A stretch of DNA of 64,000 nucleotides from Rotaria sordida (lineage: Eukaryota). The notes under the pieces are model-generated. The model searched no databases. It was not told the DNA's origin and saw only the letters and a list, made by a program, of their open reading frames with translations. The position numbers and the translations under genes were made by a program. This document shows positions 5,651 through 24,760 of this stretch, one piece after another. The stretch lies in NCBI GenBank assembly GCA_905250005.1, contig CAJNOH010000403.1, positions 34,708-98,707 of the forward strand, given 5' to 3'. The stretch's first letter is position 1; each line of letters starts with the position of its first letter.

Positions 5651-8393
5651 TTCAATGCATTTGGTATTCAGCCTGCTCAGCAACGAAAAATCTTCTCAAT
5701 CCATCAGTTGATCATAGAAAAATCGAAGGGAAAAATGTCGCAGTGGAAATTGATCGAAAAGTACTTTAGAAAACTCCGACTTGCAAGAAATTCTGTATTG
5801 TATAGCAAAATACTAACATTCTAACAGAGATCATACAGAAGTCACGAAAAAAGAAAAACTTCATGTGCTCAAAGTCATCGTACACTAGAAACACCACTGT
5901 TTCGATATTTTTCGGTTTCGACATTTTTCTGTCTCAATATTTTTCCTTTCGATCTTTCTACTCCTAAAAAACAAGAAGCCCGTTTCATGTAGCTGCATGC
6001 TTTGCTCGAAATCATCCGTAATTTTTCACATCCTATCTCGATCGGTGATACTTATCAAGCAGTCATTAACGAATTTCGTATTTGCTATCGCAGCAATAAG
6101 CACGGACTGAGACGTATCGATGAATTCTCATGCACTTACATTCCGATCAAATCGATCTACTAGTTTATAAAAGATGTCTTTCTTTATTCACTGTTAAATA
6201 GAGTCCTGAGAATATAAAACATAATCGCTATTGTCAAGTTTCAATACATCATACAAGATGTTTATTGACAACTAGCTGAACTGTTCTCAAGGCTCAGCAA
6301 TCGGCTCACATACATATTAAGTCATAATAGAATATAATTCTTAAAACATTATTGGAAAATGTATCTTTATTTGTTTGTCCAACATATATACAGATTTAAA
6401 GCTTTTTTAATTGAAAAACATGCTATCGAAATGATAAGCACATGAACAACTATTTCAATTTTACTAAAAATCTGTGGAATGTAAAATTCTATTGGCAAAA
6501 GTTTAGTATGAAAGTCTGTTTTTATAAGCTAAGGAACAGCTAGTAAATTAGTAGACTATAGTTCACTAAAAAAATTGTGACGATACTCCTACTATAGCAT
6601 ACATTCACTCTGAAACTCCATTTATTTGAAAGTAGAGTGTAATTTCTGATGATTTGATAATTTCTTAGTGTATTTGAGTGGAGTATGCATGAAGAGTAGC
6701 GCGACACCTACATCTACACCCTTCTGATGCATCGAAACAGAAAAATAAATGGTCGACAGCATTACAAATCGAATAAGTACATTGTAAATCGATATAATGA
6801 TTGGCTCCTAATAGTATCTAATCTTCTGAATGGTTTGTCCTTAGTTGTGGCAAAAAAATTGTGATGGTTCAATAGGAGCATTACTTAACGTTGATAAAAT
6901 AAGATATAAAAATCTTTTTACTTGTCTTTTACTATTTCTTTTTTAATAGTAAACATTTGGTTCAAAGTTATGTGCTTGGTTTTTTAATTTACGCGGAAAA
7001 ATAATATTCAAAAATTTCCACCTCAAGTTTTTGATATTTTTACTTTCGACCAAAGTAGGGGTATTCAGAAGATCAGTTGAGAGTGAAGACTGGTTCTGCA
7101 GAACTATGGCTTTCTTTTAGGACAGTTAAAATGACCTATATACAACAATAGATAAATCCGCTGGTTTAAATAAATCCAAAACAAAAAAAAAAACAAATCT
7201 CAATAGCTCCTCAGTTATTGGAAAACTTTTGAAACGTATTTGATTCACTAATAAACTTTCGTGTCGATATATATAACATAACAAGTTTGGGAGATACATT
7301 TATGGCTGCAGGTAAACAACAATACAAAAAGAAAAAGTTTACCTTTCCTAAATTTATTGATTTCGTAAGTCATATTTTTCAAAGACAGTAATCAAGTAAA
7401 ACAATCCTTGTTTACCAATCGATAGCTCATTAACTTCTCCATAATTAGCATAAAGTTAATTGCCGATTAAATGTTTTCATTTTTGTTAATAATGCTATTT
7501 CTGCTGATGCTCACGCCAGTAAAAATGAGTTCATTTTGAAACATACAGGATTTTATGACTACATATATACAATTGCTCATAAATATCAAAGGAAAATTCA
7601 GCAAATATTATAAGTTTTACCTTAATCACTATTATACAAATTGTGCATAATATGTGAGAACCTTTGAGTATCAACATAAGCTTCTCTAATTATATATAAC
7701 TCTGTCATTTAAAATGTGTAAAACTTATCGTCAAAAAAAAAACAATTTAAGTACATTTCCATTCATTAAATGTTTATTATTTGCAAATACAAACAAAAGA
7801 TTCCACTATAGAACAATATCTTAATTATACTTACATATTGTTTTCATTTAAAGAGAATAAAAATTTATACTCGAACTGTACTAATTGTTTCCAAGGGCAA
7901 TTTTCATATGAATAGAACGTATAATTTTCTTTCCGATAAATTATTTAATTGAATTTATTATACACCAACAATGTTATTATCTTTCATTTTAATATGAATA
8001 CTTCAAAATAACATCACGTTCTCTTCTAATTTTCGAGTCTCTGCTAATATTTCTAATCATCACATGCCTACAACATTCTATATATGTATTGATATGTTGA
8101 AAACAATATTAAAAAATTCTGATACATGCTTTGTTTTTTCTTTTTACTTCGTTGCTTATCGTGCTTACTATCGAAAATCAAAAGCCACGAACATACATAT
8201 TAAAAAAATGACCAAGAAAAAAAAGAGAGTATAGAAAAAAAAAAGAAGACATCTGTTGCTACTTTATTTTATTAGTAGTTATATAAAAATGGCTATATGA
8301 GAAAGAAATGAAATAAGACAAAAAAGAAACGTAACAGATGACGATTTTGTTTTAGTTCTTTTAATCGGGTGTGATTGTAATGATTTAAAATAT

Positions 8394-9003
8394 CTACTCG
8401 CCACGTTTGTACCAACGACGAGCTGTGACATCACCAGCTTTCATCTCCTAAAAACAGATAAGAAATTAAAATAGATTTTATTTTCGAAGAAATAAAGAAA
8501 TAAACATACAATTTGTTGTTGTCCTTGTCCATCAACATAACGTACAATTGTCGATTCTTTACCATTCTTATCACGCATTGTATGAACCCATTTATCATTT
8601 TCAAATTTGATAACGGACTATTGAAATAAATAAAAAAAAAAGATAATGTTTACATTTTCTAGATAAGACATGCGACTAACCTTAACATTTTCACCATCAA
8701 GACGAGTTTCATCGAATTCAACACCAGGTGTAAATTCATATTGTGCCGTTTTAAGCGTTGATTCACTTTTCAATGACCATTTACCATCACTTTCTTTAAT
8801 AATTAATTTTGGTTTAATCAATTTAGCTGATTGACGAAGAGCAAAACCGACACCCTTTTACAAAATAAATCAACATTTCATATATAAATATTCAAAAGTA
8901 AGAAAATCTTCTTACAATTTCTTTCATATAATCATCGAAATGTTCACCATCGACGTATTCCCATGTACCTTTAAGTTTTTCAATACCGCTAGTAGCTGTC
9001 ATA
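8394..9003 (-). CDS. Cytosolic fatty-acid-binding protein (FABP, Sm14-like), 4 exons
   Basis: Exons approx 8916-9003 (ATG at 9003; MTATSGIEKLKGTWEYVDGEHFDDYMKEI; donor gtaag), 8681-8853 (GVGFALRQSAKLIKPKLIIKESDGKWSLKSESTLKTAQYEFTPGVEFDETRLDGENVK), 8501-8617 (SVIKFENDKWVHTMRDKNGKESTIVRYVDGQGQQQ), 8394-8437 (EMKAGDVTARRWYKRGE, stop). It has the classical 4-exon FABP layout. The C-terminus matches the Schistosoma Sm14 pattern ...GDVTAIRNYKR. Confidence 0.8.
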
Positions 9004-9829
9004 TTAGTTTAATCGGTATTCTAAAAAATCACATTTGAATGTAAATATATCACTATAAACATAAAGTTCACTATGAACTTACTGAATCAACAAAAAAAAA
9101 GTTATGCGTGCAAATATGAAAAGACGAGGTAATGAGTGAATGAAAGAATATAGACACGTCTTGTTTTATATATATAGTGATATCTTCTATGAGAGAATAA
9201 GAGAGAGGGAGAGAGAGAAAGAAAATGAAATACCAATCGTATTGTATAGAGGCATTTTTTTTTTCTTTGTTAAAATAGAAGGAGAAAATGTACACATGTT
9301 GTGGTGGTGATATATGGTTGGATGAGCCTCGAAAGCTTTACATACATAATATCATTTATCACTAAATAGAATGAAAACAATGTACGATTTCTTATCGTCG
9401 GAGTCTCGCGGTTATGCGCCGAGGAATCTGTATCATTCATTGAATGAAAGAGAAACATAGACATCCGAATTTTTTTTCTTCGTAAACGAAATACATCAAA
9501 GCGTGAAGCACATCTGCTTCATAATAGTAATAACTATTATCATATCATAATTTATTTCCATTCATATATCGACTTACTTTTTAGCCTTTGATCAAGGTAA
9601 ATCAATCTTATAACGAATGATAACTGCATAGTTCTATTCTCTTTAATAAGGTTATTAATGAATATAAGAGAAAAAGAAATATGATATTCGTTGTTAATTT
9701 GAAAATATTTTTATTAATTATTTAATTTTGAAAAAAAAACAAACAAGTCTCTTGTTTTATTTATTTCATGATTAAAAAACATAATATAAAAATTTCAAGT
9801 TAATTATTAATATGAAAAAGTGCATATTG

Positions 9830-10480
9830 AATAAATTTTTCCCATGATGAATAATTCAATTCTAATTGTTCACAATAAATTCCATAACATAAACGTTTTT
9901 GCTCGTAATAATCAATTGCTTTATCAATATTCTCTAATAAAGGTTTCGGTAAATGATGATGAAGAATTGACTAAAAGTTAACAAAAAATTTAACAAAAAA
10001 AAAAGAACTAAAATGTTACAATCTCTTACTCGAATTTGTTCACTGTCAAATGGAACTAAAAATATATTTCTTTCCGATTTGGGTACTTGTAATAATAATT
10101 CAAGAAGAATAATACCCGTAGCAATCAAATGAATTATATCATTTTGTATATTTAATGCTAAAAACAAAATAATTCGATAGGTTAAGTTTTTTATTTTTCG
10201 TTTAAAAAAATAAAAGATAATTTCATCTTACCAAAAGAATTAAAACCTTGTTTATTTAAATATATTTTAAGTTCAACAAAATCTTTCATATCAAGAGATA
10301 ATAAATTAGCTAAATCTTGATTTAAATCAAATGATCCATTCGTTAATTGAATTCTTTTGAATTCATTTATCATCATCGAAGTTAAATCAATTTGTTTCGA
10401 TTTATTAAATGTTGAAAAACCTTTAAAAATTTCTGATTCACAAGTAAAATTAATTTTTTCATTTGTAGTTTCACCTTTAA
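9830..10480 (-). CDS. Hypothetical protein, at least 3 exons, family not recognised
   Basis: ORFs 10191..10376 and 9934..10167 plus a terminal exon about 9830-9965 (acceptor aacttttag; SILHHHLPKPLLENIDKAIDYYEQKRLCYGIYCEQLELNYSSWEKFIQYALFHINN, stop). Donor gtaag after ...NKQGFNSF and donor gtaagag after ...FDSEQIR. The 5' end was not determined. Confidence 0.4.
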
Positions 10481-10699
10481 GCTAAAAATAAAAATTGAAA
10501 AGATTTTCTTTTTTAAAAGAAGAATCATGAGACTATCGAGTATACGAGGCATTCAATACAAAAAAAAATGTTTTCTTTTTAAGCATTCAATACGTCGATA
10601 TCTGAAACCACCAACTCCATATATTAACTTTCTATAGTCTTTCTTTGGAAAGTTAGTCAATATCTACTTTTTACCACTATCATATTCTTATTAAAAAAA

Positions 10700-11290
10700 T
10701 GCCTTGAACAAAATTACCTATCTCAATATAATATTATATTAACCAAGTTAAGTTTGATAAGGTTGGCATCAATGAAAAATGGCTCTTTCGATAGGTATAA
10801 AACGTTCATTTGATAACAATCCATCTCCTATCGTAATCAGCAACCAAAACTGAATTGAGTTATTCGACAATTTAATTCAATTCAATTCAACAGCAATCTC
10901 TTCATTAACTCTCAAACACAAGCAACAAAATTCACTTCAATATACGGTATATACTTTCTATGTCTTGCACTTACACAAACTGTATCGATCTCTTGGTATG
11001 AGAGGTCTACTACTATTCATTTCAAAGTATCATGTATGTGAACTCGGTTTCGCCCTAAATGTATCATTTATTTTTGAATATTTATTTACAGTTTTGTAGA
11101 GAATAAAAAGTTGTATCAAATATATAATATTCAGCTTGAAACTTTTTGATTCAAAATCCCCACAAGAGATAGATTGTTATAAAGTAGACATTTTAGACTC
11201 TCATCTATGGAAACATTTTGCATTCATACTAACCTTATAAAACTTGGCTCAGTTGATATTATATTATATTGAAATAGGTCATTTCGTTCA
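10700..11290. repeat. Foldback F8: about 590 bp inverted repeat, centre about 11000
   Basis: 10715 acctatctcaatataatattatattaaccaagttaagtttgataaggttggcatcaatgaaaaatgg matches the reverse complement of 11200-11275 (ggttagtatgaatgcaaaatg...ccttataaaacttggctcagttgatattatattatattgaaataggt). Confidence 0.7.
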
Positions 11291-11589
11291 GTTTTTAATT
11301 CTCTATCTTTTAGTATAATTTATAAAAAATTCGAATGATTTGTTGAAACGAGTACGATATTTATAGGAAATATTTTTTTCATAAGGACATGATAGTGATA
11401 AAAAGTCGATATTGATTAATTTTTCAAAGAAAATCTATTGGAAACTAAAATATTGGAGTTGATGTTTTCAGACATCGATGAACTGAATGCACAAAAAAAA
11501 ATTTTTTTTTTATTGAGTGCCTCGTATAACTCGGTTATCTCATGATTCCTTTCTTTATAATTTTACAAACCATATATAATGAATCATTT

Positions 11590-12218
11590 GGTTGTCGATC
11601 ACCAACCCATACGGCATGAAAATCTTGGTTACTTTCTACATATGAAAGATGTCGTTCAATATCATTTTTGTCACATGGATCTATATAATAAATAGAAACT
11701 AACTAAGAAAATTTTCATTTTAATTAAGCAATATTCTTACAATTTTGTGAATTAATTCGAAATTTAGTTTTAGCACCTGATCGTATTTCTTCAGCTTCAA
11801 CTTGTAACAAACCATTACAATCAATATCCATACAAATTGATATTTCTAATGTTTGTGAAGCAAAATTTGGTATTAAATCAGTAAGTATAAATTCACCAAG
11901 AAATATCTAAAAAAAAAAGGCAACAAAATGAATTAATATAATAATTTTTGATTGAACATATTTTAAACTAACATTATATTTTGTAAGTTTATGTTCACCA
12001 CTGAAAATGCGAATTGTAGCTGTTGTTTGATAAGCATAAGCATTTGTAAAACAAGAATCAAATTGTGTTCGAAATGGTATTGTTGTATTACGACGAATAA
12101 TTATACACATATGACCATTAATATCTTCAATACCCAAACTGAGTGGTGTAACATCAAGTAATAATAATGCTGTATCTTTTACATCATTTTTCGAAGATGA
12201 CTTGCATTTCTTTTCCAA
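11590..12218 (-). pseudogene. HSP70-family substrate-binding and lid fragment with no ATPase domain; truncated gene or pseudogene
   Basis: Three exons: 11923-12218 (MEKKCKSSSKNDVKDTALLLLDVTPLSLGIEDINGHMCIIIRRNTTIPFRTQ...IRIFSGEHKLTKYN), about 11745-11905 (IFLGEFILTDLIPNFASQTLEISICMDIDCNGLLQVEAEEIRSGAKTKFRINSQN), about 11590-11700 (DPCDKNDIERHLSYVESNQDFHAVWVGDRQPNDSL...). It aligns with the Hsp70 motifs LLLDVAPLSLGIETAGGVMT..RNTTIPTK...GER..T.DN..LG.F.L.GI.PAPRG.P.IEV.F.ID.NGIL.V.A but is divergent. Upstream DNA (12230-12900) is foldback F2 and the PARP4 stop is at 13074, so there is no room for a nucleotide-binding domain. Confidence 0.6.
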
Positions 12219-12229
12219 CCTAGAATACA

Positions 12230-12900
12230 GTCAAAGGAAGTAGCACTTATACCCCTCGCAGATTTTTTTTTCGCACAAATATTTTTTGGTTGCAGATAGT
12301 ATGAAGATGTAAAATCATCCAATCAGACCTTGGACATTTTTAGTCTTAGCAAAGACAATCAATATTTTAGAGGACGGTCATTTATATAGGAAAGTACTAG
12401 AAAATAGGGAATATTTAGAAGTTTCTGTAGTCGAAAGTTGATTTTTATGTAAAATGAGTATGGTATTCAGAATCAGCATGAAAAATTATACTAGACAGTC
12501 TATTTTTCATTGTAAAATATTTTTCATGAAAATTTGACCCATAGGGGACCACGGGGAAAAATCTCATGGATAAAAGGTTGAGGGGGAGTAGGGGTCAGAT
12601 TTTCATGGAAAATATTTTACAATAAAAAATAGACACTAGTTTAATTTTTCATGCTGATTCTGAATATCATACTCATTTTACATAAAAACCAACTTTCAAC
12701 TACCGAAACCTCTAAATACTCACTATTTTCTAGTACTTTCCTATATAAATGACCGTTCTCTAAAATATTGTTTTTTTTGCGAAGACTAAAAATGTCCAAG
12801 GTCTGGTTAGATGATTTTACATCTTCACACTACCCACAACCAAAAGATATTGAAATGAAAAGAAACCTTGCGGGAGGAGGGGTATAGCCTATGGAAAAAG
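12230..12900. repeat. Foldback F2: about 670 bp near-perfect palindrome, centre about 12562
   Basis: 12241 tacccctcgcag... versus 12875 ...gcgggaggaggggtatagc. The interior is mirror-symmetric, e.g. 12400 gggaatatttagaagtttctgtagtcgaaagttgatttttatgtaaaatgagtatg versus 12640 catactcattttacataaaaaccaactttcaactaccgaaacctctaaatactc. Centre is gaccacggggaaaaatctcatggataaaaggttgagggggagtaggggtc. Confidence 0.9.
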
Positions 12901-13073
12901 CGCCATTTTCTTTATATATTATTCACTACAATGAATGACTATTATTTCAAAGTCATACTTGTTTTTGGACAGCAAGTCTATCTGGGTAGGTGAATTAGAA
13001 TACGATTCTTTGAAAGTCGAAGTCACCGTTGGTTCCGTTTGTTCATCAGATCGTGTCTACAATAAGCAATAAT

Positions 13074-14310
13074 TTATGCAAATGATCTAAGCGTAATTCT
13101 ATCTATACATACATCAGTATACCGCATGCATGACACAGCAGATTTATGAACAACAGGTTTAGCTTCTGAAGCTGACTTGAATTGGTTTACAAATTCGGAA
13201 AATTTATCCAATTCTACTTTTCGACGCATTTGAGGAGCGCAGATACGACTAGTAGTGTGTAGTTTACTTGATTGTTCAACAGCTCTGTCACGATAAATAG
13301 ATTCCTTTTGCTGAACTGTTGAATTTGGTTTATCTGATTCTGTTTGGATTTTGTCAACATCTGATAACATTGCCGTTAAATGTAGTAAGATAGAACGAGA
13401 TGAAGATGCAGCAGTTGATTCGATGCTAGATGGTTTAGGTGTTTCACTAACATAACCGAATGATAACGGTGCTGATAGAACAGATGAAGTCGAAGGAATG
13501 TTAAATATCGATTGATTGCTAATCATTGAAGGTGCAGCATTACAAACAGTATTTTCGCCAGATCCACCGAATGAAAACAATGATCGTGACTCCGAGGATG
13601 TGGTGCTCAACGGTAATGCTTCTGTTGTTGGATGAGGAGGTGGCGACCAAGGACACATTGCCGATTGTTGTACGATAAAGTTTGGAGTCATAAAAGAAGT
13701 ATTGGTATTATAGTTACTACTACTGCTTCCAAACAATGCTGAACTAGGTGGAGGAACGGGAGGAGGCAGTGGTGGTGGTAGTCGTGAAGGTGCACCAGAA
13801 AACATTGCTGAACCGCCATATCCTCCGAGCATGGAAGGAGCATTGATGTTGTTATTGGTGTTGTAGCTAACGTTACTTCCAAATGTAAATCCATATGATG
13901 CAGGAGAAAAAACTGATGGTTGAAACCCAAAAGGAGAAGATATTGTTGAAGCCCCAAATCCTGTGGAGCCGAAAGAAGCGTTGTTGCTGACGTTGCCGCT
14001 AACGGTAGTAGTTCCGAATGGATTGGAAGCAAATGGTACACCAAAAGAAGGAAGTGGTAATGTTGCAGGTGTGGTAATGGTAGCATCATTAGAAGCTTGA
14101 TACCCTACTGGTGCATTAAATTCTGAGAACACAGGATAGGTGTTACTAGTGTTGATGGTACTGCCTGGGAACGAAAACAGTGATGTTGTACTAAAAGTCG
14201 TACTTGAGTCACTTATTTGAGCCATTTGTGGTGCGACCATTTTCTCATTTGATAAGCAACTCGTATGTGTGAAAACAGATGAATCTAATGATGTCATTTG
14301 TTGTTGTTGT

Positions 14311-14368
<58 letters not shown>

Positions 14369-14441
14369 CTTGTAGTCCATGATCAGAAGAAGTGTATTGT
14401 TGTATTGAACTTTTCTCCCGTGACTTGCTAGACATTTCTGA
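13074..14441 (-). CDS. Putative terminal exon of the PARP4-like gene: polyQ of about 24 residues plus an S/T/N/G-rich FG/GF-repeat region and a proline-rich stretch
   Basis: 465-aa ORF 13074..14471. The in-frame acceptor ttttcag sits at about 14441. Sequence includes QQQQQ(x24), SFGVPFASNPFGTT..FGSTGFGAS..PFGFQPSVFSPASYGFTFGSN and PPPLPPPVPPP. Joining it to the upstream exons is inferred from donor/acceptor pairs at 14738/14441 and 15243/15180. It could instead be a separate gene. Confidence 0.5.
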
Positions 14442-17400
14442 AAAGAAAAGATTGATCATAATTCCTAACAAATCGTTGACATTTTAAGGATGTTCTCAAA
14501 GCATCTTCAGAAGATGATCAATATCGAAAGTTATCGATAAATATTTTATCTGAACATAGGTCTCGATGTAGAAGGAGCTAGAATTGGGTAATTTCATTCT
14601 TCTACTATCTTCATGTTTACGAAAATGTTGAACTGTAGTCAGAAAGTTGTCCGCCAAATTCTCAATTCCTTCCATATGTAAGAACTATTGAGACTCTATT
14701 TGGATACAAAAAAAACTTTATTGAAAATTTTTACCTGCTCTAGGTGAAATTTCACCACCAAGAACATTCGCATGAATAGCACTCGACTTTTCGTGAATTT
14801 GTGCCTTTTTCAGAGCGAATTTTGATAAAACTGGAGATGCTATCTGCTTTTTTGAATATTCCTTCACTTCTTGAATTGATTTTTTTGCTTTTAGAGTTTC
14901 CACTTTGTCATATGCTATGGGTTCCATCTGTTGGAAAAGAGAAGGATCAGCATCAATTTCATAAGAGTTCGCTTCTTCTTCTAGTGCTTCATCAAATGAG
15001 CATATATGACCTTCTGTTTTTTCAGAAGTAACATTCATTATTAGGTTCTCGAATTTTGTGTGCACCTCCATTGGAACTTCATAATCATCAAATAAACCAA
15101 AACTCATGCCTGCCTGACTTTCTTCACATTCTTCGTTTTGCACTGATTTAATTTCACTACATTCTAGTAGATCGTAATTCACTTAGAAAACATAGAGAAC
15201 ATGAAAATGATTAAAATAATGTTTTGAACAAAGTAAATTTACCTGCCTGGGACGACATCAAACGTAAGGAATCATCTTTTACTTCATCTAAACCGAAGTC
15301 AAATGAAAGCTTATTGTTACCCTTCATCTAGAATTAATCCAAACAATGTTTCATTTATGCTATAGAATTCACTTACAAATAGATCACCACCATCTTCGTC
15401 ACTGTAATATATTCCATCATCATCCTCAACGAGTGAATAGTTTTCCTCTTCTTCTTCTTCTTCTTCTTCTTCTTCTTCTTCCCTTTCTTCAACAGTTGCA
15501 TTTCGATGTTCTAAATCTTTTCTAATAAAAATATAATCGTACAAAACATAAATATCTCTCCATTTTCAACTTACAACATTTCAGTTCCAAGACGTATATC
15601 AATTTCATCTAGTCGTTTTTCTAATATTTTTATTTCATCAGTTGTCGCATTTTTGATTTCATTCATTAAATCTATTAATATACATTCAATATTAACTAAG
15701 AATTTTAAGAAAAATTTCATATTTACCTTTCTGCATATTTTCTTCTAATTCTCGAGCTTTTTCTTTTTGTTTAAATGTTGTTCGATATGTATTAATAATT
15801 GTTAACATTAAATCATATTTTGCATCACCACCAAAACGATATGATATATTCTGACAAAGATTTTCATATTCATTTAATAAATCAATTTTATTTGCTATTG
15901 AAGCACTATCAAATAAACGTTTTCCATTAATTAATTTATCTTTAATTATATCAATTTGTGATCGATCACCATCCCAACCAATATATGGAAGTAAATCAAT
16001 ATTATTTTCAAGCATAACATCAAGTAATCGAACACCTGTTTCAAGTGCTTGTCCATCACGTTCTTCAATAGCTACAAAACTTGTAAATGAACTCACAACA
16101 GAATATTTCATACTAAGTTCAATTAAATTTTGTTTATATTGTTTTTTAATAAGTTCATTTTCACATTCATCATTATGTAATAAACCGTTTTCATAATCTT
16201 GAATAATAGCACGAGCTGTTAAACAATGTAATATATACGTCCTCTTGTTTCAGTTATTTTATTACTAAATACAGTTGTTATATATTCTTGATTATTTATT
16301 GTTGCTGTTAATGTTGCTTTATGACAATTTTGTATAAAACGATATACAGTTAAACGCATACCGTTAAACAATGAACGAATTATTTTTGGTGCTTGACTAG
16401 TAAATTTTTCTTGTTGATCATCAATTGTTCCATGCCAATCAATGGATATATTTGTTACACATGGTTGATGAATATGTTCAAGTATTTGAAGTACTTTTGT
16501 TTTCCATCTTGAACGATAATTTGAATCAAATACAGTTATTAAACCACCACCATTTATTCCATTAGATAATTGTCTTAAATTATGTTTATTAGATATTTCA
16601 CCAATTGAACATGTAAATAAACGATCATAACGCATTGATGATCGACTTTCTAATAATATTAAAATAGATTGAAGATCATTGATATGTCCATCAGAGAGAA
16701 GAATAAATTGTCGACCGAGTTTAGATGAAGATGGTAAAAGAGAATATTGACGAAGTACAGAAAATAGATCAGTATTACCACGATGATCAAGTGAATGCTA
16801 TAATAGATATAGATTTAAATATATAAAAAAAACAAAAACCAATGGACATGATTAAAATAAAACGATACCAACCAAAATAAAATGCTTAGCTTTATCAATA
16901 TTTTCTTTTGTATTTTGTGATGAAATAGGAAAACATTCATCATTATCTAAAATAAATAAATTAATGAGAAAAAAATTAATAAAAATAAAAATATTGTTCT
17001 TGATTTACCTGATCCAAATGTAACAATATTAAAAAATATATTTTTATCATCAGTTTTCATATTTGTCAAAAATAAATGTGCTAATTGTTTTGCTTGTTGT
17101 ACATGTTTTCCATCCATAGAATTTGATACATCAATAATAAAAATAATTTCTACGTATTCATTTGAATTATTGATCATTTCAAATTTTGGATAAAATGTTA
17201 ACATACATGCTTGAGAATTTTCATCAATCAATTGATTATTAGTATTTGTATCGGATAAAACAAATGTTTCATTTAACATGCGTGGTAAATTAACACTTTT
17301 TAATGTTATGGAAAGAATAAAATCTTTTTCAAGTAAAATATTATCAACAAGTTCAATCATAGCAAGACAATCAGTTATTTTTCGACGAAGTCGATGTGTT

Positions 17401-20400
17401 GGTGAAAATAATTTTGTTATTTCATATGGCATACGTATTGATGCTTTAAGACTAAATTCAATTGATTTCATTGAAGAATTATCTTGTTCAAGATTAATTG
17501 ATGGAAGTATTGTTTGATCTTTGATTTCTAAAGCTTGTTTTGATTGCCATGAAGCTACTTTAGCTGGTAAACGAAATATAATATCATTATTTTCAATAGA
17601 TAATTCAACAACATATGTAATTTTTATAATCACTTCACAATTAGCTGGTAAATTACCAACAGATACACTAAATACTTCAGGTTGTTCTTGATGCATTAAA
17701 TATGCACCATGACCTTTTTCAATAGCTTCACGATATTCACGTTTAGCTTGTTCTTTTTCTTTAACAACACCTTTAATTATTTTATTATTAATATGAGCTT
17801 CAAAACCACAAACAGAAGAATTTTCATCAAGAGGAAATATATATTTTGCTTCAATTGGTATTGAACTTGAATTATGATAAACTTGATAAAGAACAATCTA
17901 AAATAATTTATAAAAAATGCTTTTTTTTCTTCGGAAAAGAAAATTATTTAATTTACTTCAGCAGTAACATCAATAAGTTGAGCACGAATATGAAAAGCTT
18001 TAAGTGGAACAACTTCACCTGACGATGGACAAATTAAACCATAATCTTGTTCTGCTACTTGAATTACTTCATCTTCGATTGTTGAAGGAATATCCACTGA
18101 AACAAAATATATACATGTATAATTACTGCTTTATCAGCTGGAATACTAACGAAGAAACGTTTCTAAGTGTCAAATCGTTTATGAATCGAGGCTATGTACA
18201 TCACGTAGGTTCTAATGAGCTAAGAATACTCTGCAAACAGTTCGAGCTTATAGCTCATTACTGTCAAGATACTGTATTTTTCTAGCAGAAGGCCGTAGTC
18301 TTCATTAGGAATAGCAGAAAAACTAAGTTTGGAATTTCACCTTGAAACTTTACATAGAGACAGGCCTTAATGGAAATAGGTTATTGTAAAAGTTTCAGAT
18401 CTTTTGATTACTTCTATTCTAAGATACAACTATGATGAAAGCATGTTTTTCACGCCATTCATATACAATAACAAATTCCAATGTTCTTATTTCAAAATAG
18501 GCGTAATCGAAAAATCTGAAATTTTCACAATAAGTTATTCTCATTAAGATCTCTGTTTATGCAAAGTTTCAAGTTGAAATTCGGAATTCAGTTTTCCTAA
18601 TGTTTCTAAGGAATATCATGGCATTCTACTAAAAAATACGGTAAAAATATAGTATCTTGACAGTAATAACCTATTAGCTTGAACTCTTGTCATGGTAATC
18701 ATAGTTCATTAGAACCTACATGATGCACCTAGTCCCGACTCAAAAATAATATAACATTTAGAAATGTTATCTCATTAGTTTAAATCGTTTTTCTAATAAT
18801 GTCTTATTCTTTTAAAATTTTTGCAGTTTGATTCCTTATCAATATGTATTTGATTATTAAGTTCGTTCCTTAATGTACGGAAAATAAAACCTATGGAATA
18901 AATCTTGAACAGAAAATATCCAACAAGCAAATAATTATATGATTATCATTGAGCATATTTTTATTTTTCTTTCAGAGATTAGTGGAATTCTTTCCATGAT
19001 TCTGAAGTATAACAATATCTTCGTTTTTCTATATTGCTAGAGATTGATCAAACATAAATATACAAATGGTTAATGAATTACAGAGATATCGACTAGAAAT
19101 TGCTCTTGTAACATTGTACTTAACCATGACCCATCTATAAATTTCAGTGTATAGTTTTTAGGGGAGAATATGTGAGCGAATTCCATCCCACTGATCTAAA
19201 GAAAGGCTATTTACACGATGATATGCCCTGAGCCTACTCTATAGGTCTTTGAAATAGACTTTCTTCAGATCAGTATGTTGAAATTCTCTGAAACTTTTTT
19301 TCCCCAAGCACTATTCACTTAGATCTATCTGAAGACGTAAGCAAACGTTTGAGATCTTCAATTGAGCCGAATCATTCATGAATCTCGCCTCATTATTCAT
19401 TCCAACTGTTTAGAGAGGAATTGAATGATTACCGAGATTTATTTTCGTTGGACTTACTTAAACTATGGAATTTATCTGAACTTTTCCTATTGATAGTATA
19501 TAATACATTTTCACTGTATCAAAAGAAAGCCATAGTTCTGAAGAGTCAACGTTCCGTTCACCCTCAGCTGATCCCCAGCTTTATGTGCCATTCTCGTCCT
19601 CGCTATCGGCTAGGCATCTGCCTTCAATCTAGTTTATTTCGTTTGATGATAACATAAATAACGAAATTTATTAAAAAAAATCCCCAAAATTTCCTACAAA
19701 AATAAATCTCGAAAGCTGTTGCTACGAGGATGACAAACGTCCAACCAATGATCAATATATTACAATTAAAATCTATTGAAGAGAACTAATGCGAAATCAA
19801 GACGAAATCTGAATGCTGATGTGTATTATGAATTATCTATGATTTGTTTGGAAAAAAACTGATTACCTTCATCTGACAATAATTTTGACTGATTTGTTAA
19901 ATAATCACGAATAATAGGTAATAATTTTAGTGATTGATCCATATTATCATATGGTATCCATGAAAGTTCAACAAGATAGAGTAATCGTTGTTGATCAAGA
20001 TTATAAATAACATATTCATCATCCTAAATAAACATCATAATAAAAATCTGATTGAAAATAATTATTTATTTCTTACGCTAAACTTTGAATTATTTTCATC
20101 ATTTCTTTTTACTCCATGTGTACTATGAAAATGTTCAGGTGGTTGAATTAAATTTGGTGCATATGAATAGAATTTTGCCGAATCTCCTAATGCTACTTGA
20201 GATATACATAATAATCGTCGATCAGGACGTGTTATACTTGGTTTTGTATATTTTAATGATGTTGAAACTGAATCAGAAAAATAAAGTCCATATCCTAAAC
20301 ATCCAATATCAGTACGTGTAACTCCTAAATCATTAACAACCATTTTTGGCATAAGAAGACCGCTAAAAAGAAAACACAAAGAATTTGAATATAAAACTAA

Positions 20401-22203
20401 GAAAACAATGTTTTTTTCCGTTTTTTGTTTAATTTACCGTGATAAAATACCAAGAAAATTATTATATTTTGATCCATGAAAAAGTTGTTTTTGATTAAAA
20501 AATGTTGAACGAAAATTCAATGCATCTGTTTGTTTAGCTACACTATATATTTGATGAATAATTACTTGTTCATTTCTACAAAAAATATAAAAATTTTGAT
20601 AATTACAAACAAGACAAAAAAAAAAAAAAAATACGAACGAATTCGTTGATGAAGAAATCATTTTACTAATTGTAGCGTATTCATGTGTATCACTCTTTAC
20701 AGTTTCTATATGACATTTTAATGCCCGATATTTTGCTTCAATTGATGCTTTTATATTCCAATTTGTTAATTCATTTATAGTAACCATATCGCGTAGCATC
20801 TAAACTTTGAAAAACGAAAAAAACTAGAAAAAATTTAAAATAAAATTTCTACCTGACATAAATCTAATTTATCAATTAATGCACGACGATTATTAATAAG
20901 ATCGATAACAAATGATTGTTGATGAGGAATAAGCGAATAGAAACGAATTTCTGCTTCTAATGGCGATTTACTATCAGATTTGATTTCAAGTAAAGCAGCT
21001 TCTGCTTCAATAATCTAACAATAATAAGAAACAAATAATAAAATTTTTTTTTTAATGTTTTTCTCCTACTGTTTTAAGAGCAATTGTTTCTGGTTGTATA
21101 GAAAGTATTTTATTTAAATCACCAATTGATTCAATCCAAAGTGATTCAACTAATTGACAAACATTATCATCAAGCATTTGTGTATCAATTCGATGAAGAA
21201 ATAATGACTAAAAATTAATTGAATTTTTTTCAAGAGGGAAAAAAACAAGCATTTTTATATTTATCTTACACGTAATAATAATTTCGAACCTAATTTATCC
21301 GGTAATAAATCACGAATTCGTGTTATTCGTGGCATTGTTACAATACGATTATAATATAAAGCATATAATTGATGTAATTCATTAATATCATGACTAAATG
21401 CATATTGAATTAAAGATATTTTACCTTTTAAATTTGTTATTGTTTGTTTTTCATAACGAAATCTTAATCGATAATCATTATTTGTTTGATTATTATATTC
21501 TTCAGGAATAATTTGAACTTCAAGAACAAAATAAACATCAGAATTTTCATTTGTTTCCTATTTTACGAGAAAATAAATCAACAATAAATTTATTTTTCAA
21601 CAAATATTTACTTTAAAAATTGCCCATTTACTAATTTCAGCATGTGTTAATTCATCAAATCGTGGTAGTTTAACATCATCAGAATTCCAAATTTTAATTT
21701 TTGACAAATCTAATTTAACAGGTTTTATTATACTACCGGAAGGATTTCCTCCATCTATGAGAAAACAAAAGATAGAATAATTTTTTATATTTCAATGAAA
21801 TCAATTTATTAACCCGTAATAGATATAGTACCACTTTTTGAAAAATTTTCTTTATCTTCTGCTGACGTTACAATAAATCGTTTAATATCAATAGAATTAT
21901 TTTCATTGGGTAATTTACGATATTCATAAATATATTCAACATTTACTAATGGTATACCGAACTGTTTAGCTCGACGAGTTTTATATGTATCAATATCATT
22001 AGAAACCAAAACATAATCAGTCTAGAGAAAATTATATTTAATTATATTTAAATATGAAATTAATTAAAACATACACTGGCTGTTAAAATATATGAAATAT
22101 GAGCATTTTGTTTATGTAAATAATTAATAAGTTCTTGTTTAGTTTTGAAACGAATATCTCGACCAAGCTCAAGTACAAATGTCTTACCATTTAATGGTGA
22201 CAT
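13074..22203 (-). CDS. PARP4: PARP4 / vault poly(ADP-ribose) polymerase-like gene, about 20 exons: BRCT, PARP regulatory and catalytic, VIT, VWA, then a long low-complexity C-terminal region
   Basis: ATG at 22203 (MSPLNGKTFVLELGRDIRFKTKQELINYLHKQNAHISYILTAS, BRCT-like). The PARP catalytic signature spans exons 20437-20565 and 20087-20367 (...LFHGSKYNNFLGILSRG|LLMPKMVVNDLGVTRTDIGCLGYGLYFSDSVSTSLKYTKPS...) and exon 19868-20037 (DDEYVIYNLDQQRLLYLVEL). VIT runs from exon 17955-18107 into the large exon about 17000-17885 (...KEKEQAKREYREAIEKGHGAYLMHQEQPEVF...). VWA with MIDAS is IIFIIDVSNSMDG in the same exon. Further exons are at 16240-16800, 15692-16218, 15567-15668, 15317-15545, 15243-15316 and 14738-15180. 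The terminal exon is 13074-14441. Most GT/AG junctions check out. This BRCT-PARP-VIT-VWA order is specific to PARP4. Confidence 0.75.
14281..14352. repeat. (CAG/CTG)n trinucleotide repeat encoding polyQ
   Basis: ttgttgttgttgttgctgttgctgttgctg... seen on the plus strand; it codes for Q(24) on the minus strand. Confidence 0.9.
15436..15482. repeat. (GAA/TTC)n trinucleotide repeat encoding polyE
   Basis: cttcttcttcttcttcttcttcttctt gives EEEEEEEEEEEEEE in the minus-strand exon 15317-15545. Confidence 0.9.
18135..18775. repeat. Foldback F3: about 640 bp inverted repeat, centre about 18450, inside the PARP4 intron 18108-19867
   Basis: 18160-18290 cgtttctaagtgtcaaatcgtttatgaatcgaggctatgtacatcacgtaggttctaatgagctaagaatactctgcaaacagttcgagcttatagctcattactgtcaagatactgtattttt is the reverse complement of 18640-18760. 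The inner parts also pair (18330 ggaatttcaccttgaaactttacat with 18560 atgcaaagtttcaagttgaaattcgg). Confidence 0.85.
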
Positions 22204-22662: not shown

Positions 22663-24393
22663 TTCGTCAAGTACTACTTAATACATAGATCGGATATCTT
22701 TCAGCATTATAAATACGACTTATTTGTAATAACATATTTCCAACTTCTGGATCATTTAAATAAGTTGTTATTGTACTTGGATTTTCATATAATTGAAGCA
22801 TAACTAAATGGAAAATTTTCAATTTCAATAATATTAATTATTAAAAATAAAAAAATCTACCTAAAAATATCTTTGGATTATTAATTGCTCGTTGAATAAC
22901 TGAATTTTCCATAATAGCTTGAAACATATTTGAATTTGGATCAAGACCTTGTTCATTAATAGCATCGAGTATATTTTGTTGTTCTTTATCAGTAATAAGA
23001 TATTCACACTAAAAGAAAAAACAAAAATTTACAGATAAATATTAATGAAAAAGAAATTCTTTTTTTTCATACAGCTAAATTTCCATTATTATAACATATT
23101 CGTAAAGCATGTATTATATCATCATGATTAAAACCCATATCTTCTAATGATTGAATGGCCTATTTAAAAATAAAAGAAAATTTTTTCAATTAATCATAAT
23201 TGTTTTTTTTTTACTAATGAATTTGGTTGAAAACATTTTTTTCGAAATTCTCGAAATGGTATAAATGGACCGTTACGTGAATAGAAAAATTTTGTTTTAT
23301 GCAAGTTTTTTCTTCCTTTTTCATTATCATCGGTATCTTTTTCGGTTAAAAGTAATTTCATAGCAGCATTTAAATCATATCTTAACAAAAAACAAAAATA
23401 TTAAAATTCTATAAAAATAATTTATTCTTGTAATTATTCTTCTAACTTTGTTCGTTCAAGAGCTTGTTGTGCTTGCTGTTCAGTAAATCCCATATTAACT
23501 AGTTTTTCTATCTGATTTTGATGTTTTTCTGTATGATTTGAATCTGTTCTCGGTGATTTTGAAAGAATTTCTACAAAATACAATAAATGAGAAAAAACAA
23601 ACAAATTTAAAATTAAGAAAACAATATACCTTCAGCTTCCTGAAAGATATTTTCAGCATCTGCACAATACCAAAGTAATTTGTGTGATGTTTCAATCAGT
23701 GTAAGTAATACACGACTAAGATCAGTACGAAACTAAATATTATGGAATTCATTTTTTTCTTTGAAAGTAGGAGAGAGACATAATTAAGAATTGAATATTA
23801 CTTCTGTTCTCCCTGCTAGATGTTGAGATCGAGAAAGTGAATATGTAGGTAGTGGAAGATCTTGTGTTCGAAATTCGATTAAATTTTGATTTATAGAAGA
23901 AGGTTCGAATGTCTATATAGTCAAATATATATATAGATTTTGAAGAATGGAGTTTTGTCGTTATACTTGTTCAGCTTTCGATGGTTGTTGAGATACTTTT
24001 GCTGCTAGAAGATACTCATCTAGAAAAAAAAACAAACATTCATGAAGAATAAATTAATATTTCTTGACGAATAATCCAACCTCCATCTTTAACATCTTCT
24101 TGACTTAAAGTTTTCTGTTCATCAATAATTTTTTTTGTTTCAATCGATATTAATTTATAATTATCCATTTCATTCAATTGTATGCTACGCATTGAACAAT
24201 CATATTTCGATAAATTACTATTATTATTTTTTAATAAAAATTGTATAGCTAAATATTTAACATATGCAAAAGTTGTATTCTCAGCTGGAAATGTATCTTG
24301 AAAAATTGCACCAGTTTTTGACCAAATTATGAGCATAATATTTTTTGATTGATCATCACGAACATCGAATATTGCACTTGTTGCTTCTGCCAT
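22663..24393 (-). CDS. NUB1-like protein with three UBA domains, multi-exon
   Basis: ATG at 24393 (MAEATSAIFDVRDDQSKNIMLIIWSKTGAIFQDTF...). Exons at 23830-24030 and 23580-23700. UBA1 is at 23495-23580 (IEKLVNMGFTEQQAQQALERTKLEE). UBA2 is at 23194-23388 (YDLNAAMKLLLTEKDTDDNEKG...). UBA3 is at about 23100-23160 (AIQSLEDMGFNHDDIIHALRICYNNGNLAV). Terminal exons about 22870-23020 and 22663-22800 (...QISRIYNAERYPIYVLSST, stop). The UBL-less N-terminus with a C-terminal UBA triplet resembles NUB1; I cannot exclude another UBA protein. Confidence 0.55.
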
Positions 24394-24760
24394 TTTAATT
24401 TATAAATAAAAAAAAAAACAAAAGAGAAAAATCTAGAAAAAAATGAACCAAAAAAAAATTTTTTGTTTTTGCTTTTTGTCTGTTGCATTCGAAAGAAATA
24501 CGAAAAGAAAACTTTGTTACAACAGAAACACACACAAAAAAAGAAAAGAAGAAGACATTTTCTCTCATTTCGGCCTTATACATATATCTGTTAGTTGAGA
24601 GAGAGAACAGGGGTAACAAGAGCACACAAATACACACACAAACAAATAAACGAAAACAAAAAAAAGAAGAAAAGAGAGACAAATATGAAATGATAATCTT
24701 CGAGTTTTTTTTTTTCTTGTCTTATTTTCGAAATACATATCAGTGTTGAAGTTTATAATA
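24394..24760. promoter_or_regulatory. Purine/AC-rich low-complexity tract just upstream of the NUB1-like ATG; probable 5' UTR or promoter region
   Basis: Runs of aaaagaaaa and acacacacaaa. The overlapping ORFs 24327..24533, 24395..24682 and 24483..24749 on both strands encode K/F/E-rich nonsense. Confidence 0.4.

Follow-up and report, generated by a model that had tools for sequence, protein, structure and literature searches.

Does the PARP4-like gene at positions 13074-22203 of this 64,000-nt stretch of DNA (the window) end in a low-complexity tail, or does that tail lie inside a longer gene? The original prediction had read BRCT, PARP regulatory and catalytic, VIT and VWA domains, followed by a terminal exon whose poly-Q, FG-repeat and poly-Pro tracts take the place of the C-terminus that binds the major vault protein (MVP). 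We find it highly likely that 13074-22203 is instead the first three quarters of one bdelloid (Rotaria sordida-type) PARP4 homologue gene, with the low-complexity stretch an internal, translated linker.

Gene model, allelic protein and N-terminal core

This is DNA of a bdelloid rotifer: the window is 98.6-98.7% identical to an R. sordida contig, in exons as much as in introns. Joining in-frame exons at GT-AG introns yielded a single PARP4-like gene on the minus strand, with 26 exons, an ATG at 22203, a stop TAA at 9802-9800, and a 7.2-kb coding sequence for ~2,420 aa. Junctions within the linker were set manually with a homology check, and a dynamic-programming exon chainer was kept for the downstream exons; the linker exons proposed by the chainer were dropped, as it had been trained on AT-rich domain exons and chopped the GC-richer linker into small pieces. 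The GT-AG model comprises:

22203-22075, 22021-21814, 21754-21612, 21557-21270, 21207-21070, minus strand: exons 1-5
21014-20853, 20799-20639, 20575-20438, 20362-20077, 20023-19867, minus strand: exons 6-10
18096-17957, 17897-17009, 16946-16873, 16797-15727, 15671-15575, minus strand: exons 11-15
15521-15377, 15327-15243, 15181-14735, 14437-13113, 13056-12959, minus strand: exons 16-20
12219-11973, 11906-11741, 11689-11571, 10481-10232, 10157-10030, 9970-9800, minus strand: exons 21-26

The contig in question (R. sordida assembly GCA_905251635.1, contig CAJNOT010000275.1) carries the annotated allelic protein P0001, 2409 aa long and named ‘Poly [ADP-ribose] polymerase’, whose architecture matches the window gene end to end; identity is 93% over 100% of a query from which the poly-E and poly-Q runs had been removed. 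Both loci share their neighbours, a UBA-domain gene upstream—separated from the PARP4-like gene by an intergenic spacer of 467 nt—and a lipocalin/FABP gene downstream. Relative to P0001, the window has five more E and 14 more Q, lacks a 39-aa duplication of an FG unit and carries a TA frameshift. The P0001 annotation makes use of an in-frame 81-nt candidate intron, 14203-14123. A near-identical protein is already public as an automatically annotated poly(ADP-ribose) polymerase. The homologous gene models used for comparison are all computational predictions.

Pfam placed the following domains ahead of the linker:

21923..22200, minus strand: BRCT domain, aa 2-76 (PF00533, E 1.2e-4; 22.6 bits, cut-off 21.3)
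19964..20688, minus strand: PARP catalytic domain, aa 394-571, across introns (PF00644, E 3.9e-25)
18004-17613, minus strand: VIT domain, aa 635-745 (PF08487, E 7.4e-36)
17150-16549, minus strand: VWA domain, aa 900-1054 (PF13768, E 2e-13; PF00092, E 6.1e-10)

VIT and then VWA, both C-terminal to the PARP catalytic domain, form the arrangement that marks a PARP4 (vault PARP, of the clade 5 PARPs) and bear out the family assignment of the original prediction. Its domain order also held for BRCT, PARP catalytic, VIT and VWA, the BRCT match being marginal in the window protein and clearer in orthologue P0002 (E 4.7e-6). Its PARP regulatory domain did not: PF02877 gave no Pfam match at E ≤ 0.1 in the window protein and one below threshold in paralogue P0010 (E 2.2e-4; 21.7 bits, with the cut-off at 26.8), and it is the overall alignment of this region with PARP4 proteins that suggests such a domain. 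The catalytic domain contains the motifs QLFHGSK, GYGLYFSD and DDEYVIYN, which we take, from knowledge of PARP signatures rather than a structural alignment, to supply the H-Y-E triad.

The linker and its junctions

Composition, FG statistics and an open-frame test were used to characterize the linker, which falls into no Pfam family. Its features and two of its introns are:

12959..15521, minus strand: linker, ~715 aa, five exons
15481-15443, minus strand: poly-E, 13 consecutive E
15391-15377, minus strand: acidic motif GGDLF
15309-15283, minus strand: acidic motif LSFDFGLDE
15107-15084, minus strand: acidic motif MSFGLFDD
14438..14734, minus strand: 297-nt intron (GTAAAA...TTTCAG) that separates the acidic from the Q/FG/Pro exon, its splice sites shared by the two haplotypes
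14366-14298, minus strand: poly-Q, 23 consecutive Q
14297-13428, minus strand: xFG-rich segment
13778-13746, minus strand: PPPLPPPVPPP
13057..13112, minus strand: 56-nt intron, GTATGT...TTGTAG, same position and 56-nt length in Adineta vaga, Adineta steineri and R. sordida

The tracts first described as 14 E, about 24 Q, an FG enrichment and PPPLPPPVPPP are all there, the E run counting 13 residues and the Q run 23. FG dipeptides number 11 in the linker as compared to 1.7 in shuffles (z 7.7); within its 290-aa core, FG plus GF reach 12 where 3.5 are expected, a count attained in none of 5,000 shuffles. The open frame 13074-14471 spans 465 codons, the shuffled maximum being 208. Pfam runs on pieces of the linker returned noise only (E > 0.04). 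A database search with the linker alone, meant to pick up transcript-derived fragments across the junctions, detected no sequence homologues outside Rotaria and returned just two split Rotaria gene models. The linker is presumably intrinsically disordered.

Indels in the linker exons relative to the allele measure 15, 42 and 117 nt, all multiples of three; nine of the ten intron indels between haplotypes are 1-2 nt. Synonymous-site GC is ~0.19-0.27 in linker exons against 0.05-0.07 in domain exons, and this GC-richness led us to consider horizontal transfer or a transposable-element origin of the linker exons. No evidence for either was found: apart from a (GAA)n tract, the linker exons are not repeated elsewhere in the window, and the conserved position of the linker exons in Adineta also speaks against it.

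At the two joins proposed initially, the true boundaries run from an exon end at 15243 to an exon start at 15181, and from an exon end at 14735 to an exon start at 14437; the proposed joins are in frame and of GT-AG type, with coordinates off by 1-4 nt. A. vaga and A. steineri share the exon structure of the linker region. Comparison with related PARP4 orthologues, as the original prediction had suggested, revealed similar linkers and exon structure in Adineta, and the structure shared with P0001 and these orthologues upholds its inclusion of the Q/FG/Pro exon in the gene. In the Adineta orthologues P0002, P0003 and P0005, PARP-VIT-VWA is followed by an S/P/acidic/Q linker, an Hsp70 substrate-binding domain and a C-terminal helical domain, an order repeated in the more distant paralogues P0010, P0012 and P0014.

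Where the gene ends and whether this copy is intact

Straight read-through from the Q/FG/Pro exon reaches a TAA at 13076-13074, as would be expected if the gene ended at 13074 and this exon were a new C-terminal tail standing in for the MVP-binding domain. We regard such an ending as extremely improbable. The TAA is met by reading into the 56-nt intron, which runs from a consensus GTATGT donor (13112) to a TTGTAG acceptor (13057) and keeps its length in Rotaria, A. vaga and A. steineri; the peptides on its two sides are retained as well (RYTD and TRSDE in Rotaria, RYCD and TRSDE in A. vaga). Beyond it, the Hsp70 substrate-binding and MVP-interaction exons continue in frame on the same strand, and the annotated allele P0001 runs on to the end.

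A division into two genes is very unlikely too, although more can be said for it. A PARP-VIT-VWA gene would end by read-through at 14718 (...SPRAGKNFQ and stop), and a linker-Hsp70-MINT gene would start in or after the 297-nt gap. Predictions in Rotaria sp. Silwood1 and Silwood2 are indeed split: some Rotaria annotations stop the gene model at this intron via read-through to GKNFQ and stop (P0004 ends GKNFQ), and other Rotaria predictions (P0121-P0123, P0241 and P0242) begin in the linker. Moreover, an ATG at 14435 directly follows the acceptor, an AATAAA overlaps the read-through stop, and the gap (297 nt; 467 nt in A. vaga) far exceeds the usual intron length of 50-65 nt and resembles the 467-nt upstream intergenic spacer. 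However, the homologous intron is only ~64 nt long in A. steineri, and the allele has ATA in place of the ATG at 14435. Predictions are fused in R. sordida, A. vaga, A. steineri, A. ricciae and paralogues, P0122 joins the acidic exon straight to the substrate-binding domain, and in ten non-rotifer PARP4 sequences examined the MVP-interaction domain sits on the same polypeptide. A single gene with an internal linker remains our preferred reading.

A separate matter is the status of this copy, which differs from the allelic R. sordida locus, by pairwise alignment and as-is translation, in one disruptive feature:

16236..16237, minus strand: 2-nt TA insertion

The joins proposed for the interval are frame-consistent, but this insertion breaks its frame: it shifts the reading frame inside the conserved GRILHCLTARAII motif and brings in a premature TAA at 16221-16219. 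A full-length protein from this haplotype requires either an assembly error or a 50-nt cryptic intron that deletes the conserved motif. It is possible, if somewhat unlikely, that the copy is a disabled allele—an incipient pseudogene—from which the linker downstream of 16219 is untranslated. The near-neutral divergence between haplotypes (1.04% in exons, 1.31% in introns; 64 non-synonymous and 9 synonymous substitutions) would fit such a decay, as would the premature stop caused by the insertion, which lies in a (TA)n run. Against it, indels in dinucleotide repeats are typically errors of assembly or polishing; all other exon indels are multiples of three, and nothing else breaks the frame in the 7.2 kb of coding sequence. 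In the linker region every splice site checked is intact, and outgroup-polarised amino-acid changes showed no asymmetry between the alleles (11 versus 11 in the N-terminal domains, 5 versus 5 in the linker). With haplotype substitutions mostly non-synonymous, purifying selection leaves no visible trace over this timescale, and dN/dS between haplotypes, being uninformative at 1% divergence, was set aside. A disabled allele would bear on this copy and not on how the gene is built, so this possibility and the single-gene reading can stand together.

C-terminal modules and relation to known proteins

The gene extends 3.3 kb past 13074 and has six more exons after those of the linker, the last three of which encode the very MVP-interaction domain that this exon had been thought to replace. 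The modules are:

11741..12219, minus strand: Hsp70-type substrate-binding beta domain, exons 12219-11973 and 11906-11741 (Pfam PF00012, E 1.5e-22)
9800..10481, minus strand: PARP4 MVP-interaction (MINT / MVP-ID) domain, three exons (BLASTP, hhalign)

The Hsp70-type domain carries the LLLLDVTPLSLGIE linker motif and matches profile positions 380-499 of 599 of PF00012 only. In the PDB it matches the Hsc70 substrate-binding domain (PDB 1ckr, E 3.2e-23), the PDB matches covering residues of Hsp70 substrate-binding domains only; of lid helix A just the start is present, running into exon 11689-11571, and no coding exon for an Hsp70 ATPase (nucleotide-binding) domain lies upstream of the substrate-binding domain. 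Located between linker and MVP-interaction domain, the insertion was present, LLLLDV interdomain linker included and ATPase domain lacking, in all seven full-length bdelloid PARP4 homologues examined, most of which keep an acidic MGFGLFD motif in the linker that resembles the ribosomal P stalk; among the matches listed, only bdelloid PARP4 homologues had it. The literature searched held no description of a PARP4 with an Hsp70 substrate-binding domain, while the architecture is visible in automatic Pfam annotations of public proteins.

For the C-terminal domain, BLASTP matched hamster PARP4 residues 1625-1743 (E 4e-4). A single-sequence PDB search of it returned nothing relevant, so profile-profile comparison was needed: hhalign aligned bdelloid with other metazoan PARP4 C-termini at a probability of 98.4% (E 4.9e-15). 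Paralogues carry PF26156, with the UniRef name ‘PARP4 MVP-ID C-terminal domain’. An AlphaFold2 model of the C-terminal 356 aa of P0001 was poor (mean pLDDT 48.5), and Foldseek of this model against the PDB returned just Hsp70 substrate-binding domains with low TM-scores, which adds nothing to the sequence comparison.

The linker separates the folded BRCT-PARP-VIT-VWA-helical core from the C-terminal Hsp70-type and MVP-interaction modules. If human PARP4 is a guide, the C-terminal domain would dock the protein inside the MVP cage, against its wall, and a long flexible linker could let the catalytic and VIT-VWA end reach its substrates while displaying short candidate partner motifs (acidic MGFGLFD-like, xFG and PPPxPPP). 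For the most part this is an ordinary finding, because the low-complexity stretch is the usual internal linker of PARP4 and the vault-binding end is still encoded: the gene model is corrected, and the supposedly unusual extension becomes the normal, presumably disordered linker of the family. We rate as rather unlikely a bolder view, in which bdelloids remodelled their vault PARPs by capturing an Hsp70-type domain that tethers clients or chaperones to an ADP-ribosyltransferase in the vault. If the captured domain has kept its affinity for extended hydrophobic peptides or for partners of Hsp70, it would hold unfolded clients or the chaperone machinery inside the vault, and vaults, ADP-ribosylation and proteostasis could be linked in extremely stress-tolerant animals. 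In bdelloids, PARP and MVP genes are induced by desiccation and radiation; the presence of MVP genes in A. vaga and the radiation response of bdelloid MVP genes have been described (PMC10809525).

Among known systems, FG-nucleoporins and prion-like Q/N-rich domains share with the linker a poly-Q run and xFG dipeptides set in S/T/N/G/P-rich sequence. Unlike FG-nucleoporins, the linker has just 9-11 FG, and Pfam found no nucleoporin anchor domain or nucleoporin family in the window protein; the resemblance is compositional only. A relation to ribosomal stalk P proteins (PF00428) was rejected: the tail-like motif is internal (MSFGLFDD, 15107-15084), the P1/P2 dimerisation domain is absent, and the match in orthologue P0002 (profile positions 63-88) falls below cut-off (27.2 against 28.1 bits). 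The Hsp70-type domain is ~42-44% identical to cytosolic Hsp70 substrate-binding beta domains (Hsp70 / Hsc70 / DnaK) and keeps the interdomain linker LLLLDV, TPLSLGIE, RNTTIP and DID.NG, whereas the nucleotide-binding domain is missing and the helical lid is reduced to its start. Embedded as it is in a PARP4 protein, it does not make the rotifer protein an Hsp70-family chaperone in the usual sense.

Nor is the linker composition unusual, as originally held, since S/P-rich, FG-enriched linkers, often with proline runs, occur in PARP4 of Adineta, amphioxus (Branchiostoma), an octocoral (Dendronephthya) and a frog (Pelodytes). From rotifers to vertebrates, PARP4 has kept both the MVP-interaction domain and an S/P-rich linker with frequent FG enrichment. 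Adineta linkers cannot be aligned to Rotaria residue by residue, but composition, poly-Pro runs and MGFGLFDD motifs are common to both; their poly-Q run has 8-11 Q and is absent in A. vaga. The PARP4-like proteins of Branchiostoma (P0040) and Dendronephthya (P0041) carry an acidic EEMGFGLFDD / EDMDFGLFSDD motif in linkers with, respectively, 19 FG (z 8.9; proline runs to 7) and 10 FG (z 5.4; proline runs to 4). The acidic MGFGLFD-like motif also recurs in two amoebozoan PARP4-like proteins, which makes it a testable short-motif candidate for PARP4. Behind the linker, the Branchiostoma and Dendronephthya proteins have an MVP-interaction-type C-terminus (Dendronephthya as part of the hhalign profile, Branchiostoma as judged by eye) and no Hsp70 substrate-binding domain, Branchiostoma having a 14-3-3 domain in its place (PMC4245714).

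In vertebrate PARP4, the BRCT, PARP catalytic, VIT and VWA domains come in this order too, at 33-40% identity over the part of the query that can be aligned (41-58%, essentially the N-terminal core). A long S/P-rich linker is likewise present, which in frog, bird and fish contains runs of proline and is somewhat enriched in FG. The rotifer protein differs in its longer linker (~715 aa against ~250-580 aa), its runs of 23 Q and 13 E, its acidic MGFGLFD-like motifs, the Hsp70 substrate-binding beta domain between linker and MVP-interaction domain, and the lack of a Pfam match for the PARP regulatory domain. In human PARP4, the MVP contact residues are S1614, K1618 and R1689, and residues 1562-1724 (MINT) bind MVP repeats 3-5 (PMC12280208).

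Gene structure and C-terminal modules

The original prediction ended the PARP4-like gene at 13074, where a stop codon is met only if a 56-nt intron (GTATGT at 13112, TTGTAG ending 13057) is left unspliced. Once this intron is spliced, the frame carries on into an exon at 13056-12959, followed by a 739-nt intron with a foldback element inside and six more exons, up to a TAA at 9802-9800.

Modules of the PARP4-like gene
22203, minus strand: ATG start codon, beginning of the gene
12219-11741, minus strand: Hsp70-type substrate-binding beta domain (PF00012, E 1.5e-22, profile positions 380-499 only)
12219-11571, minus strand: exons by which the PARP4 homologue carries the Hsp70-type domain (LLLLDVTPLSLGIE...); an ATPase domain is absent
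10481-9800, minus strand: helical domain, aligning with hamster PARP4 residues 1625-1743 (E 4e-4)

The Hsp70-type domain matched the Hsc70 substrate-binding domain in the PDB (1ckr, E 3.2e-23). A bdelloid profile of the helical domain matched a PARP4 C-terminus profile, built from fish, shark, bird, frog, mammal, placozoan, octocoral and sponge sequences, with 98.4% probability (E 4.9e-15), and the matching Pfam family in the paralogues is named ‘PARP4 MVP-ID C-terminal domain’ in UniRef. Its human PARP4 counterpart, the MINT domain (residues 1562-1724), docks on MVP repeats 3-5 (PMC12280208). Given this homology, the vertebrate-type C-terminus is retained in the 10481-9800 exons; the central claim, that a novel extension stands in place of the MVP-binding end, is wrong, and the predicted finding is accordingly of low interest. 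The proposed N-terminal order held in part: BRCT (marginal), PARP catalytic, VIT and VWA domains lie within the first 1,357 residues, but the PARP regulatory domain had no Pfam match at E<=0.1 in the window protein.

Allelic locus and reading frame

The window is rich in AT, with a GC content of 25-36%, and has short GT-AG introns. With poly-E and poly-Q runs removed from the query, the minus-strand conceptual protein best matched R. sordida P0001 (2409 aa; 93% identity at 100% query coverage), followed by other bdelloids (Adineta, other Rotaria) and then by PARP4 from numerous animals and PARP4-like proteins from two amoebozoans. The locus encoding P0001 (L001, GCA_905251635.1) shares 98.6-98.7% DNA identity with the window, exons and introns included, and has the same neighbour genes; from this identity and shared neighbourhood we take the window to belong to the same species, as a further haplotype or isolate.

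Neighbouring genes
~22670-24395, minus strand: UBA-domain gene, ~470 nt upstream of the PARP4-like gene; this neighbour was seen in the R. sordida locus only
~8378-8986, minus strand: lipocalin/fatty-acid-binding protein (FABP) gene, downstream; likewise in R. sordida, A. vaga and A. steineri

In the A. ricciae model P0005, the lipocalin/FABP gene is wrongly joined to PARP4.

At 16237-16236 of the minus-strand gene, the window carries (TA)3 against (TA)2 in L001, a 2-nt insertion that falls within the conserved GRILHCLTARAII motif. In the sequence as given, residue 1163 is the last before a premature TAA at 16221-16219, and the linker lies downstream of this stop. The exon chainer could restore the frame only via a 50-nt cryptic intron (16265-16216), which costs a net 16 residues including most of the GRILHCLTARAII motif and, applied to L001, would disrupt the frame there. 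Derived amino-acid changes fall symmetrically on the two alleles, which thus give no sign of long-standing decay; the insertion represents either a frameshift allele of recent origin or a misassembly of the (TA)n run. Between the two loci, 64 codon changes are non-synonymous and 9 are synonymous; exons diverge by 1.04%, nearly as much as introns (1.31%), and several changes are clustered (e.g. 13391-13364, 14435-14402).

Foldback (palindromic inverted-repeat) elements, each inside a long intron
18145-18779
12278-12851
10516-11556; the allele differs by a 101-nt indel (10946-10846)

Arm complementarity is 71-92%, all three lie within stretches alignable with the allelic contig, and they are probably MITE-like insertions.

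Position and composition of the linker

Both proposed joins of the low-complexity exon proved in frame with canonical sites, at exact boundaries 15243|15181 and 14735|14437. The core, linker, Hsp70 domain and MVP-interaction domain are predicted as one protein in the R. sordida allele, three Adineta orthologues and distant bdelloid paralogues. When the proteins of A. vaga and A. steineri were mapped to their own loci, a common plan emerged, with the linker at a conserved position: an acidic exon, an intron, the big low-complexity exon, a 56-nt intron (4/4 loci), an exon of 33-35 aa (opening with TRSDE in Rotaria and A. vaga), and the Hsp70-domain and MINT exons.

A true split into two genes is favoured by some Rotaria assemblies, in which P0004 ends in ...GKNFQ*, a read-through of donor 14735, and models P0121-P0123, P0241 and P0242 begin inside the linker. 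However, the candidate second start, ATG 14435, is ATA in the other haplotype, and the intron ahead of the big exon (297 nt in Rotaria, 467 nt in A. vaga) measures only ~64 nt in A. steineri, leaving no space for a gene boundary. We consider a split very improbable; on comparative evidence the exon is predicted to belong to the PARP4-like gene, of which alternative isoforms are possible. P0001 lacks the 28 residues STTFSTTSLFSFPGSTINTSNTYPVFSE because its public annotation removes an 81-nt in-frame candidate intron (14203-14123, GTACGA...TCTCAG) within the Q/FG exon; the frame is intact either way. Also in favour of one gene, the three linker indels between the haplotypes measure 15, 42 and 117 nt, against 1-2 nt for 9 of the 10 intron indels and 101 nt for the tenth.

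The predicted composition was borne out: 13 consecutive E (15481-15443), 23 consecutive Q (14366-14298), PPPLPPPVPPP (13778-13746) and an xFG-rich S/T/N/P/G segment (FG+GF 12 versus 3.5 expected; reached in 0/5000 shuffles). The 465-codon open frame is far above chance (longest in shuffles, 208 codons). The description of the composition as unusual did not stand, as linkers of other PARP4 proteins, excised between conserved anchors, are FG-enriched too.

FG enrichment in PARP4 linkers
Adineta orthologues (n=3): FG 9-15, z 6.5-8.2
Branchiostoma: FG 19, z 8.9
Dendronephthya: FG 10, z 5.4
Frog Pelodytes: FG 7, z 5.3

Most of these linkers have proline runs of 4-11; two Adineta orthologues and one Rotaria paralogue have poly-Q of 8-11. 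Sequence homologues of disordered regions are usually not detectable, and a database search detected none of the linker outside Rotaria. The linker contains an acidic motif (AGMSFGLFDDYEV) resembling a ribosomal P-stalk tail.

15107-15084, minus strand: MSFGLFDD, internal to the linker, similar to the tail at the C-terminus of ribosomal stalk P proteins

A motif of this MSFGLFDD / MGFGLFDD type recurs inside the linkers of P0002, P0003, P0005, P0010, P0014, P0040, P0041, P0116 and P0118, its carriers being bdelloids, the amphioxus Branchiostoma (EEMGFGLFDD), the octocoral Dendronephthya and the amoebozoans Balamuthia and Acanthamoeba; the PF00428 match in P0002 is sub-threshold. Third-position GC is 0.07 in exons of the folded N-terminal domains, 0.12 in Hsp70-domain and MINT exons and 0.24-0.27 in linker exons, near intron GC (0.27); at four-fold sites it is 0.05 versus 0.19-0.20 in linker exons. 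This may reflect relaxed codon selection or quicker linker turnover.

Comparison with known PARP4 proteins

By analogy with PARP4 biology, the C-terminal domain would tether the enzyme within the MVP cage, and the ~715-residue linker could serve as a flexible leash, also displaying motifs, from this anchor to the catalytic/VIT-VWA core. MVP genes are present in bdelloids alongside many PARP genes, and radiation and desiccation induce both (PMC10809525).

A nearly identical protein, P0001, is already deposited, and the protein family, linker and C-terminal domain are known. Conservation of the inserted Hsp70 domain extends to both groups of bdelloid paralogues, many alignment columns being invariant (e.g. 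FTNAYAYQT), and among the best 120 PARP4-like matches PF00012 is confined to bdelloid proteins. The literature searched held no description of such an insertion in PARP4; a survey of PARP4-like architectures lists 14-3-3, actin and ubiquitin accretions, an Hsp70 substrate-binding insertion not among them (PMC4245714). The newest defensible point appears to be this Hsp70 substrate-binding domain insertion, bdelloid-only among the PARP4 matches listed.
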